From a virus (lineage: Duplodnaviria; Caudoviricetes), in the IMG/VR virus record IMGVR_UViG_3300005512_000202, positions 1 to 31,489 of that record: 31,489 nt of DNA; one strand, given 5' to 3'. The first letter of the stretch is position 1, and every line of letters starts with the position of its first letter. The translations under genes were made by a program, and so were the position numbers. The notes beneath the pieces are model-generated. The model did no database searches. It was not told the origin of the DNA and worked only from the letters and a program-made list of their open reading frames with translations. Below are positions 6,212-9,685 of the stretch, piece after piece.

Positions 6212-8113
6212 TTACGCTATCTCACAAGCTCCACCAACACACGCTAGTTCTTGTGACCCTTCAGTAACATCCTCCTGTTCATTCAAGTCCCAGTTAATCT
6301 CCTCAGGCATAGCCTTTACGAGTTCTCTGTATTGCTCTTCCGTAATTGTTTCATATGGTGCTTGCTCATAGGTATGATTAGAGTAAGGCAAAAAGCTAAC
6401 ACCACTAACACTATCGAAATTATTATATAACCAGTTACCAATAGCAAGGAATTCACTGTCTCTATAATAAACTGTAATAGACGGCTTATGCTCACACCAA
6501 TGCTCCTGATACATAGTCCATAGTTCAAGCTGCTCCAGTCCTGTCTGCTCTGAGGCTATCACAGCGCCCTCAGGAGCCTTCTTAACGAAGGAGAATACCT
6601 TGGTAGTGGGTGATAGGTTATCGTTCTCTACAGGGACTCCTGCGGCCTCTAGGACACTACATAGTGGGTCACGTGAATCAGCCCTAACACGGCGAATATA
6701 GTGCTCAGCAAATCTACCGTGGATACCACTAGCAGAGTCCACCAACTGCGAGACTGTACCAGATGGCTTAACGCACGTGATTGCAGCACTTTGGTTGATG
6801 CCCAGTTTCTTAGCCCATTCTTTATTGGTTGTTATAGCTTCATCCTTAAGCTCCTCTAATACTTGAGATAGTGGTAATCGTTTACCGTTGTTGAACCACA
6901 GCCCTCCATCCTCCTTCATAGCCAATACAGGGTGGTCAAGAATCCCTGTCATGCTTACTCCCAAAAGAGCTTCCTCTTCTGTGTTTTCCTTCCACTTGCG
7001 GCGAAGGTATCGGAAGTCTGTGAGGGTAGCTTGGAGAGTTCCAAGGATACTTGCAACTCGTACCTTCCTTCGCAGAGACTCGTATGTGTCGTCAGCCCTG
7101 ACAACAACTTCTGACAGGTTACAAAATTGGTTGGGTCTGAGGATAATTTCTGAGCAAGGATTTGTGCCAAAGTCCCAGTTGCTATCTCGTCTACCGTTTT
7201 TCTCAGCTTGTTTCTGACTTGCCACTCGACTAAAGATACCTCGTTCGCCTGATCGTGATTCATATAAACTGTTCCACTCATTTAGAAATGCTTCAAAGTC
7301 TGGCTTCTCAGTGTAGCAAGCACTGTTGTTAGCGAGACCTCGTTGGGGTTCATCTACCCACCACTGTCCGTGCTTCGCTCTGCGGAGGCGGTCGTCTGTG
7401 AGGTTGCTGAGGCTGATGAGGGCTGAGCGTCTGACTCCTCCGACAACCACAATCTGAGCGATTTTGCAGCAGATATCATGGCATTCAATACTACTAAGTT
7501 TACGTCCTGCAGCTTTCTTGAACACTTCGACTGTAAATTTGAAGAGGTCAACGAGAGGTTCAGCGCCGCTAGCTCGTCCTCCAAAAGTTTTAAGAGTTGC
7601 TCCTGCTGGTCTGACCTTTGAGACATCCCAAGACGGTAACTGACCGCTGTAAAGTAAGCTGACAAGTTCTCGATAAGCCTTTGCCCATCCGATTTTGCTG
7701 TCGCTGACTGTGATGACTGTTTCTGTTTCATGAAAGTCCTCCGAGACTTCAGGTAGTTTAGATACGTACTGGCGCTCTACAGAAAAACCAACACCCGTGC
7801 CACACATGAGTATGTACATCATCTCATCAAATGCACGGGGATGATCAATAGGTAGATAGCTACAGTTAAAGCCTGCTACGTTGTCACGGTCTAGTGCTTT
7901 ACCTGCAGTCATCAACGCTCGCATGGAAGGCATGACTTCAAGGTTCAGGATAGTGTTGTAGACCTCATCGTAGTCTTTGCCTGTGAGCTGTCCACGCTCT
8001 TTGAAGTAGTCACAGTAACGCGCTACAGTCTCAGGCCAATCCTCACGGCGTTGTTCTTCTGGAATGTAACGTGCATAACGTGACTTGTGAATGTACTCTT
8101 GATATGAATCCAT
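6212..8113 (-). CDS. nrdJ: Class II (adenosylcobalamin-dependent) ribonucleotide reductase
   Basis: FNCSY, GTGVGFS, GGVRRSA, TNPCSEI (catalytic Cys), VKPSGT, C-terminal CVGGAC redox pair; no beta-subunit gene in the arm. Confidence 0.9.
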   Translation of the reverse strand: MDSYQEYIHKSRYARYIPEEQRREDWPETVARYCDYFKERGQLTGKDYDEVYNTILNLEVMPSMRALMTAGKALDRDNVAGFNCSYLPIDHPRAFDEMMYILMCGTGVGFSVERQYVSKLPEVSEDFHETETVITVSDSKIGWAKAYRELVSLLYSGQLPSWDVSKVRPAGATLKTFGGRASGAEPLVDLFKFTVEVFKKAAGRKLSSIECHDICCKIAQIVVVGGVRRSALISLSNLTDDRLRRAKHGQWWVDEPQRGLANNSACYTEKPDFEAFLNEWNSLYESRSGERGIFSRVASQKQAEKNGRRDSNWDFGTNPCSEIILRPNQFCNLSEVVVRADDTYESLRRKVRVASILGTLQATLTDFRYLRRKWKENTEEEALLGVSMTGILDHPVLAMKEDGGLWFNNGKRLPLSQVLEELKDEAITTNKEWAKKLGINQSAAITCVKPSGTVSQLVDSASGIHGRFAEHYIRRVRADSRDPLCSVLEAAGVPVENDNLSPTTKVFSFVKKAPEGAVIASEQTGLEQLELWTMYQEHWCEHKPSITVYYRDSEFLAIGNWLYNNFDSVSGVSFLPYSNHTYEQAPYETITEEQYRELVKAMPEEINWDLNEQEDVTEGSQELACVGGACEIA

Positions 8114-8368: not shown

Positions 8369-8407
8369 AACCACACCTCATTAATTAAACCATACGCTAA
8401 CATTATA

Positions 8408-8599
8408 CTACACATTACTATCACAGTCAAGTACCATGCTATTTTTCTTTTCTTCATTTCTCACCTTCTGGCAATCTTTGCAGTAATGCTCTACGTCTTT
8501 GTGTCGCACACCGTAAGCCAGAATGACGCTGCACTGGTTACAGAGTAATGCGCCACGACCACCGTTAAACTTCACGATTGCGTGCCTGTACTTTGTCAT
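8408..8599 (-). CDS. Small zinc-ribbon-like protein
   Basis: CNQC...CKDC; GGAGG RBS; TGATG overlap with upstream gene. Confidence 0.7.
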   Translation of the reverse strand: MTKYRHAIVKFNGGRGALLCNQCSVILAYGVRHKDVEHYCKDCQKVRNEEKKNSMVLDCDSNV

Positions 8600-8838
8600 C
8601 ACTCACCCTCCTGCTCACTTAACTTATTATCTATGTACCTCAAATTATCGTGACCTTGTAGGTATATGACTCGTTGCTCCAATAGCTTAATGCGTCTATT
8701 CTCTGCTTCTAGCTCTTGGATATACTCCCAAGCCGCTATTGCCACTTCATCTTCAAGCAACGGGCAGTCGCCTTCAAGATGCTGTCTGGCTCGCTCTGCT
8801 TGTACTCTTAGTTCTTCGCGTTGATAGTCATGTAACAT
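8599..8838 (-). CDS. Hypothetical helical protein
   Basis: ~79 aa ORF in operon orientation; same GGGTGAGTGATG start context as the next gene. Confidence 0.65.
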   Translation of the reverse strand: MLHDYQREELRVQAERARQHLEGDCPLLEDEVAIAAWEYIQELEAENRRIKLLEQRVIYLQGHDNLRYIDNKLSEQEGE

Positions 8839-8930
8839 CACTCACCCCATTCGCTTATCATGTTGTGCTGTTGTTCGCTTATTAGGTGCAGGCACTCGCT
8901 TTCGCTTTATCCTGCGTTATCTGCCCTCCG

Positions 8931-9241
8931 CGCGGTTGGGTAGCTTATAGGAACTACCCGTGGGGCTTACAAAGTGGGTCTTCTCGGGCTAAGCGTGCGG
9001 GGTGTTGTTTGTAGTAACCCCGCTTGATGCGCATCACCGCGAATTCTTTAGAATAGACACTCGTCTTTATCGCCGTTATCCATGGTTTGGCAGGGCCTGT
9101 CGAGTTCGTCTACGGGATAGCTACTTCCCTGCGACTGGCTAGGACAATTACCGTTCACGCTTGGGCGAACCACACTGAACGCAACCCTGAGTGCCTATTC
9201 TAAAAAATTGGGACTGTCTTTTAGTTGGCCACGGCGCAGTC
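8931..9241 (-). ncRNA. Candidate structured non-coding RNA (tandem multi-stem domains)
   Basis: 16-bp closing stem 9047-9062/9189-9204 and several GC-rich inner stems; two mismatches read as G-U only on the minus strand; no ORF of 60 aa or more in the gap. Confidence 0.6.
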
Positions 9242-9373
9242 ATTCCGTTTAAGTATACTCCAATGTCCAATTTTGGCGATTTGGTGTACACATAGACATC
9301 CTCATGTCTAAAAACTGGGACTTTATGGACACTTTCTGCACATTGTTAGTATATATATCCCACTTTCCTGCGC

Positions 9374-9685
9374 CTAACGATCGCCCCCACTACCTTGTAT
9401 AACTCCACGAGCCTGTCGTGACTTCAGCTTCTCAATATTAAAGATTGCTATATCCTCTAGCTTAACACCTTGGTCTGCAGCAACGTTAGCTAGATTCCAC
9501 AGTACATCACCAAGCTCTGACACCACCTTAGTACGATCAATGTCAACAGCATCCCCACGTAACAGAGGCTTGACAAATAAGTCAGCGGCCTCTGCAGCTT
9601 CAATCATGAGTGACGTTACAGGGTACAAGCGGTCTGTGTAGATTGCTGTCTTTTGTGCTTGTTTTTGATACTCATTAAAGTCCAT
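9374..9685 (-). CDS. mazG: MazG-like nucleoside triphosphate pyrophosphohydrolase
   Basis: FNEYQ..A.KTAIY, EAAE, SELGDVLW, NIEKL.SR..RG.I.GSG. Confidence 0.9.
   Translation of the reverse strand: MDFNEYQKQAQKTAIYTDRLYPVTSLMIEAAEAADLFVKPLLRGDAVDIDRTKVVSELGDVLWNLANVAADQGVKLEDIAIFNIEKLKSRQARGVIQGSGGDR

Follow-up and report, generated by a model that had tools for sequence, protein, structure and literature searches.

Three structured RNA modules forming a mobile cassette in marine and saline phages, with a candidate decoy of the AbiF defence toxin

The ORF-free gap and its surroundings

The window (the whole stretch of DNA that was analysed, 31,489 nucleotides) is a linear virus record, 87% complete, of a podovirus-type phage in which the genes for DNA polymerase A, a primase/helicase, a class II ribonucleotide reductase (RNR) and MazG are all carried on the minus strand. 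The closest cultured phages are distant marine relatives, with 40-62% identity in single proteins (RNR 62%, polymerase 46%). The gap between 8841 and 9374, recognised as ORF-free in the first-pass annotation, was found to hold no conserved ORF, tRNA or Rfam family. Upstream of its element stands the MazG-like gene (9374-9685, minus strand), and the class II (B12-type) RNR (6212-8113, minus strand) follows three ORFs downstream; both are context, the RNR being unlinked to the element. No Rfam family reached its gathering score anywhere in the window, and a local scan of 8700-9500 with E values up to 10 returned two chance snoRNA matches only. No tRNA or tmRNA was detected, in agreement with the earlier statement that the element is not a canonical tRNA.

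The gap holds a mobile cassette in which three modules follow one another on the minus strand, in the order C (9207-9247), A (9042-9209) and B (8885-9042). The stems from which one or more structured RNAs had first been proposed are real, every one being present in the sequence at the position assigned to it; the element is not a single RNA. The minus strand folded better than its shuffles (z -2.52, 1/100), and the plus strand folded no better than its own (z -0.36, 37/100).

A predicted sigma70-type promoter (9252-9279, minus strand; TCGCCA, 16 nt, TATACT) lies about 6 nt ahead of module C and matches the consensus at 9 of 12 positions, which taken alone is the level of a chance scan. A promoter-like hexamer pair was present at a fixed spacing before C in all nine cassette loci examined, two of them with a different spacer. 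Another promoter-like site, strong (11/12), was seen at 8402-8430, ahead of the last ORF and the RNR; it is more likely than the cassette to drive transcription of the RNR. Upstream of the cassette, after MazG, a 20-bp DNA motif (9305-9324, minus strand) recurs in relatives without the RNA modules. It occurs once in L001 (4441-4460) and twice in L002, is kept with or without the cassette, and may be an origin, have a regulatory role or be the point at which the cassette entered by recombination.

Homologues were collected by pattern scans of viral and metagenome contigs followed by iterative profiles, which gave 42 distinct sequences of A, 19 pieces of B and 13 sequences of C from partly redundant loci; the spread of C is an undercount. 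The modules recur in unrelated marine and saline phages, mostly within tRNA clusters (a tRNA gene in 45 of 65 element loci), and their order is shuffled: C-A-B in the window, C-B-A in L107, B-A-C in L132, C-A-A-B in L117, and, in most metagenome loci, A without the other modules. Between unrelated flanks, four phages share 363-500 nt with the window at 90-95% identity; the modules have thus been exchanged among phages recently. An RNR was present in only 1 of the 65 element loci, and that locus is 99.5% identical to the window. None of the 80 loci fetched by their RNR carried the structured part; two of them, L001 and L002, match the gap over its initial 90-140 nt and no further. The MazG-to-RNR gene order is kept in L001-L003. 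By BLAST, the gap found no match among cultured phages, and a sister cassette compared with phages and plasmids gave only short matches outside the modules or matches at chance level.

Variation of alleles inside the gap was assessed in a single comparison against contigs of public DNA runs. Alleles skipping A, or A together with C, were found there, with joints at 9046-9210, 9043-9250 and 9044-9253. AATT stands on both flanks of A, and for most of the skip joints the letters between are given as not known. All sequencing runs that contained the sequence were DNA runs. One RNA-labelled run left 9065-9166 uncovered; it was available as contigs only and contained 0.04 of the words, so that it is uninformative either way.

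Structures of modules A and C

Module A (9042-9209, minus strand), which is precisely absent in some alleles, consists of a closing or carrier stem, P1, of 17-21 bp around a core with helices P2-P5 and two pseudoknots. The first-pass annotation had placed the closure in a 16-bp stem (9047-9062/9189-9204); this stem is present, and its arms actually extend over 21 nt (9042-9062 and 9189-9209, 90% complementary). Of the 42 copies, 28 of full length entered the alignment used for scoring; those that were partial, nearly duplicated or interrupted by long insertions were omitted. With the structure drawn from the scored sequences themselves and kinship uncorrected, 47 pairs in 8 helices were paired in 96.3% of cells and 30 of the 47 were changed on both sides (27 sequences), the weaker helices being less secure. 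None of 500 shuffles was as good, and slid controls paired at 26-46%. The closing stem was doubly changed at 14 of its 18 pairs; the pseudoknots were 92.6% and 95.1% paired, with doubly changed pairs numbering just 2 and 1, respectively.

The mismatches of two stems had been read as A-C on the plus strand and G-U on the minus strand. Indeed, this asymmetry holds among homologues: closing-stem columns 9-23 of 27 sequences contain 16 G-U cells on the minus strand against a single A-C cell. Covariation, one of the checks named at the outset, is likewise present, both in module A and in the 3′ domain of B. There is no conserved ORF, the anchor-to-anchor length of A being spread over the three frames (13, 9 and 6 of 28 rows).

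The core of A contains unpaired, A-rich linkers that are invariant, and the module often begins directly after the end of a tRNA. A stem of the P1 type encloses many unrelated cores of 40-140 nt in these phages and for this reason looks like a carrier. At least 12 further core types, with module cores of 36-141 nt, are closed by a similar long stem in phage tRNA clusters (L094, L129, L131, L132, L143, L153, L189, L196, L198, L203, L208, L209, L213, L218, L224, L234, L342, L344 and L347); T-loop-like words were noted in several of them, and none had an Rfam match in the loci scanned. Group I introns were also seen near copies of A within phage tRNA clusters (L201:1071-1285 and L202:422-622).

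Two loops of A carry self-complementary hexamers. The hexamer of the last loop (9080-9085, minus strand; CCAUGG in the window), a candidate kissing loop, is self-complementary in 42 of 42 copies. It reads CCUAGG in 38 of them, and there are four variants, one of which is self-complementary by wobble; ACUAGU, UCUAGA and UCUAGG belong to single lineages. The second hexamer, UAGCUA in the P4 loop (9118-9123, minus strand), is a perfect palindrome, of four kinds overall, in 24 of the 35 copies with a parsable hairpin. Whether these loops form kissing-loop dimers is evenly balanced, and C-N-N-G tetraloops would account for part of the pattern.

Long complementary ends enclose A, as they do a retron msr-msd RNA. 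A retron reading was not supported: no adjacent reverse transcriptase gene was present among the 45 ORFs scanned in the window, and in a weak test module A had no significant match in 30 reverse transcriptase loci, just one of which passed the family cut-off. The comparison with retrons and DRT9 draws on PMC12916289 and 10.1101/2025.03.24.645077; the kissing loops of DRT9 make single-base contacts, unlike the palindromic loops of A.

Module C (9207-9247, minus strand) is 36-45 nt long and has near-invariant arms around an optional hairpin; of the 13 distinct sequences in the set, one is probably a chance match. The smaller stem listed at 9212-9241 in the first pass is present, and it forms a module in its own right, found alone as well (solitary between tRNA genes in L131), which by itself folds no better than shuffles (z -0.11). 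A resemblance of C to group I P7, and words reminiscent of RNase P, are impressions that no model supports. Models of self-cleaving ribozyme and group I intron families had no match in the window.

Cellular counterparts were found for neither A, C nor the 3′ domain of B. An exact-pattern scan of 185,579 genomes returned 17 stretches for A, 6 for C and 2 for the 3′ domain of B, numbers at or below the chance estimates and unconfirmed by profile; the best cellular match was one of C in L186 (E 1e-5). Covariance models run over 151 genomes gave no hit for A and two weak hits for the 3′ domain of B, of which one, in L385, is a true orphan copy of B. When the cassette was compared by BLAST with sets of 301 and 400 genomes, the only hits were to tRNAs or at chance level, and an apparent pile-up of matches on the last hairpin of A was discarded, the matches lying in coding sequence.

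Another phage module, in L196 (945-1005), matches a cellular element at L434:2745-2805 over 61 nt with 89% identity. The L434 element is intergenic and lies on the opposite strand, at a distance of 23 nt on the 3′ side of a DUF3800 operon that adjoins a restriction-type locus; it reaches the gathering score of no DUF3800 family in Rfam. The putative DUF3800 link comes from one genome (1 of 28 DUF3800 loci; 1 of 28 genomes in the family), a defence role for DUF3800 not being established in the literature found.

Module B and its relation to AbiF antitoxin RNAs

The 5′ domain of B (8985-9040, minus strand) is a circularly permuted RNA of the AbiF antitoxin type. It is made up of a GCG strand (9030-9032), a 6-nt bulge (9024-9029), a stem (9018-9023/8997-9002) and a CGC strand (8993-8995); in the loop at 9003-9017 (minus strand), 3 nt connect what are naturally the 3′ and the 5′ flank. 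The fold predicted for 8983-9041, a 3-bp helix and a 6-nt bulge opposite 1 nt followed by the stem, has the layout of the Rfam abiF consensus. Two elements of the initial fold were not upheld in homologues. The CGCGG/CCGCG pairing proposed to close domain B is not conserved, and B extends to about 8885, where it ends in a pseudoknot. The palindrome at 9025-9036 is not kept as a hairpin, its GCG pairing instead with the CGC at 8993-8995.

AbiF genes were fetched from 301 genomes of the order of G002 (titled Pseudomonadales), 29 of which were positive, with 30 loci; 25 loci were scored against the two halves of the window copy, five partial, weak or contig-end loci being omitted. At 6 of the 25 the halves were matched with 4-9 mismatches, none of 200 shuffles being as good in each case (shuffle minima 12-15). 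With the halves swapped and both flanks included, the window agrees at 35 of 39 bases with the RNA that precedes the AbiF gene of L368, a gammaproteobacterial locus whose gene is an Abi_2 member (E 1e-53). These data indicate that the 5′ domain almost certainly derives from an AbiF antitoxin RNA. From the type of AbiF RNA and from the locus L385 described below, we infer Gammaproteobacteria as the host group.

The permuted order was present in nine distinct phage variants and in none of 137 cellular loci, so that a tandem precursor that would explain its origin was not found. No tandem repeat expansion of the permuted unit was seen either: the unit is single-copy, and 8800-9420 contains no such repeat family. 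The variants track both cellular types, GCU/AGC and GCG/CGC, and pairing is kept in all nine. The permuted copy of L162 agrees with the halves of the cellular Rfam type at 20 of 20 positions. The window copy differs from these halves at 7 of 20, a score matched by 123 of 300 shuffles and alone not significant, and 3 of its 6 bulge bases differ from those of L368; it may therefore fit a different AbiF, or have drifted.

The window domain also lies below the gathering threshold of Rfam RF03085, which gave no hit. The same model finds just 1 of 20 gammaproteobacterial AbiF loci (within L354-L383). Most AbiF-upstream RNAs of this class thus fall under the Rfam cut-off, and a wider model, covering the GCG/CGC and long-loop types, is needed. 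Unpermuted abiF RNAs above the gathering score were found in the sister cassettes L129 (45.4 bits), L135 (42.2 bits) and L226.

No Abi_2 gene is present in the window (87% of the genome), no AbiF in four carrier phage records, and no AbiF-like ORF in 65 element loci. The permuted unit, with its own closing stem, also lies within the intervening segment of two-piece tmRNAs (L496:968-1379 and L502:1047-1460); in L350 an unpermuted abiF RNA adjoins a two-piece tmRNA. A complete orphan B was located at L385:1449-1616 (G077). It stands last in an integrative element, next to an AbiEii/AbiEi toxin-antitoxin pair, with no AbiF-sized candidate noted in 14.8 kb. From this island it follows that mobile elements other than phages carry B too.

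The 3′ domain of B (8885-8977, minus strand) is an H-type pseudoknot in which 8972-8976 pairs with 8893-8897 and is crossed by the pairing of 8911-8915 with 8888-8892. Its loops hold hairpins, and three conserved linkers contain UAA. Across 16 sequences all cells of the pseudoknot helix are paired (100%), and 4 of its 5 pairs show double changes; for the crossing helix the corresponding values are 89.9% and 3 of 5. The hairpin at 8938-8959 pointed out in the first pass is an optional insertion, found in 4 of 14 aligned B sequences. Of 11 viral matches to the Rfam-type abiF motif, six were followed by the 3′ pseudoknot without a long ORF and one by a 300-aa ORF; the remaining matches had neither feature or were not displayed, and downstream ORFs were taken by length. 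The pseudoknot followed none of 107 cellular abiF-motif matches, and a relaxed descriptor for it proved unspecific. An extra conserved module of about 50-60 nt with a hairpin stands between unpermuted abiF and the 3′ domain in L129, L342, L344, L349, L352 and L135. In L121, an HNH-AP2 endonuclease gene (213-767) is inserted between the two domains of B and is preceded by a fold like that of the 3′ domain.

Proposed function, alternatives and comparison with known systems

AbiF is a HEPN RNase held inactive by abiF RNA, which acts in trans by direct binding, according to the accessible part of one report (10.1101/2025.04.15.648962), and bulge nucleotides of the RNA inhibit the RNase in the available text of another (PMC12737573). 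A review, as far as its text was accessible, classes AbiF with the type III systems and presents Cas13 as a presumed descendant of AbiF (PMC13064643). For a phage copy that retains the bulge but comes without a toxin, a decoy is the simplest reading, as for the pseudo-ToxI RNA. By this analogy, the 5′ domain of B would quite likely neutralise host AbiF in trans; AbiF is available as a target in 29 of the 301 genomes of the sampled order. Counting against the decoy reading, the abiF RNA of C. difficile consists of two motifs, both of which mattered in the accessible part of the report (10.1101/2025.04.15.648962), and the window B has one.

The cassette as a whole is probably a set of RNA decoys that keep RNA-controlled defence proteins of the host off during infection. 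One of the possibilities raised in the first pass, a decoy or antitoxin-mimic ncRNA, has gained ground, through the permuted copy of an RNA found upstream of AbiF toxin genes and through the presence of the modules in tRNA clusters of other phages. Transcription would be driven from about 9246 by the host through the sigma70-type promoter, and the long carrier stem and tRNA-like neighbours would let host or phage RNases excise the modules as stable RNAs. The 5′ domain of B would then bind the host AbiF HEPN RNase dimer like the true antitoxin and replace the latter once host transcription stops, so that abortive infection would fail. As a result of the permutation, the ends of the RNA would lie at a distance from the bulge that binds the toxin, and the 3′ pseudoknot would serve as protection or as a further decoy. 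For A and C a decoy role against other RNA-dependent defence systems is predicted, with possible dimerisation of A via its palindromic loops. They are assigned this role from their company in the cassette only, and a decoy function for these two is as probable as its absence.

The alternative that survives best, which we regard as unlikely, is that only B is a defence decoy and that A (and C) shares the transcript but has a function of its own, for example that of a ribozyme, of a processing signal or of a structural RNA that assembles with itself. The compact, double-pseudoknot core of A with its invariant unpaired A-rich linkers would suit such an RNA, as would two palindromic loops fit for dimerisation, the frequent position directly after a tRNA end, the occurrence without B in most metagenome loci, and the failure to find a host counterpart. 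Against this, no Rfam ribozyme family matched, a carrier stem around many unrelated cores fits an array of interchangeable cargo, and both of the cassette modules that could be traced lead to bacterial toxin or orphan-RNA loci. An independent role for A is compatible with the result for B.

That the modules are selfish or neutral MITE-like mobile pieces, with the abiF likeness a relic of recombination with a host toxin-antitoxin locus, is considered very improbable. Inverted repeats bound A, which is precisely missing in some contigs, the cassette keeps its 90-95% identity over 363-500 nt in phages whose flanks are unrelated, and B of L121 has received an HNH-AP2 gene. However, the closing-stem sequence varies freely with its pairs kept (the 14 of 18 doubly changed), unlike transposase-bound ends; the ends of A vary with compensatory changes and are not sequence-conserved terminal inverted repeats. 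Internal helices and pseudoknots covary as well, and the permuted unit keeps its pairing in nine variants and reappears in the spacer of two-piece tmRNA, which is not expected of a relic.

The position of the element upstream of the B12-dependent RNR, on the same strand, suggests that it might act on this gene in cis, as a regulator or a riboswitch. Such a role is scarcely credible and already largely refuted: no cobalamin family matched, three ORFs and a separate promoter-like site intervene, close relatives with the same gene order and 91-94% identical RNR lack the modules, and the single RNR among the 65 element loci belongs to nearly the same phage. An antisense regulator, also proposed initially, finds no match elsewhere in the window beyond chance.

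Returning to the preferred reading, a set of decoys, a wider version of it is possible, though we hold it only tentatively. Marine and saline phages may run a general RNA anti-defence platform of interchangeable small RNAs, arranged in arrays and enclosed by carrier stems or by tRNA/tmRNA precursors, with every small RNA modelled on the RNA component of a separate bacterial immune system. AbiF would be one target, A a self-dimerising decoy, and A, C, the 3′ domain of B and the other cores a catalogue of RNA-controlled defence systems, including DUF3800. If the other modules are decoys too, RNA-dependent defence systems as yet unknown could be found backwards from the phage copy, and phage tRNA clusters would gain a second job as carriers of anti-defence RNAs.

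Within the literature found, where coverage of subscription papers was incomplete, no paper dealt with phage abiF mimics or with these cassettes, and six supplementary files of PMC10690425 held no match to the modules; A or C could be listed as unnamed candidates in the supplement of PMC5737381 or in other files of PMC10690425. The available text of PMC5737381 describes GOLLD and ROOL near tRNA genes in phages, as the modules are here, and DUF3800 motifs that are complex and somewhat UAA-rich, a richness that resembles the 3′ domain of B. GOLLD/ROOL and the DUF3800, drum and skipping-rope motifs differ in that the present modules are much smaller, and none gave an Rfam match here.

RNA-based counter-defence is represented, in the accessible portions of the literature, by pseudo-ToxI in one phage (PMC3594212) and by Racr RNA anti-CRISPRs (PMC10651486). 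The latter, as described there, are solitary viral copies of the RNA part of a defence system that act as inhibitors; their target is CRISPR-Cas, whereas the present modules are larger, pseudoknotted and held in carrier stems within tRNA clusters. Pseudo-ToxI of PhiTE, as far as the source text was available, is a toxin-less phage mimic of the ToxIN antitoxin and a proposed direct toxin inhibitor (PMC3594212). Like it, the 5′ domain of B resembles a type III RNA antitoxin while being encoded by a phage and having no toxin beside it, and the active unit that is out of phase with the DNA repeat there has a parallel in the permutation here. The differences are that pseudo-ToxI is directed at ToxIN and built of tandem repeats, and that the candidate target here is the AbiF HEPN RNase, addressed by a single permuted copy that belongs to a multi-module cassette spread over unrelated wild phages. 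From the abiF RNA antitoxin itself (AbiFr/RCd22, RF03085), with which it shares the stem, the 1-nt gap, the 3-bp helix and the 6-nt bulge, the domain is set apart by swapped halves, an opened apical loop, fusion to a pseudoknot, and the lack of a terminator or abiF gene behind it. With the cassette, these known systems are joined by a candidate RNA inhibitor of AbiF that is naturally circularly permuted, is missed by Rfam and is spread among unrelated wild phages.
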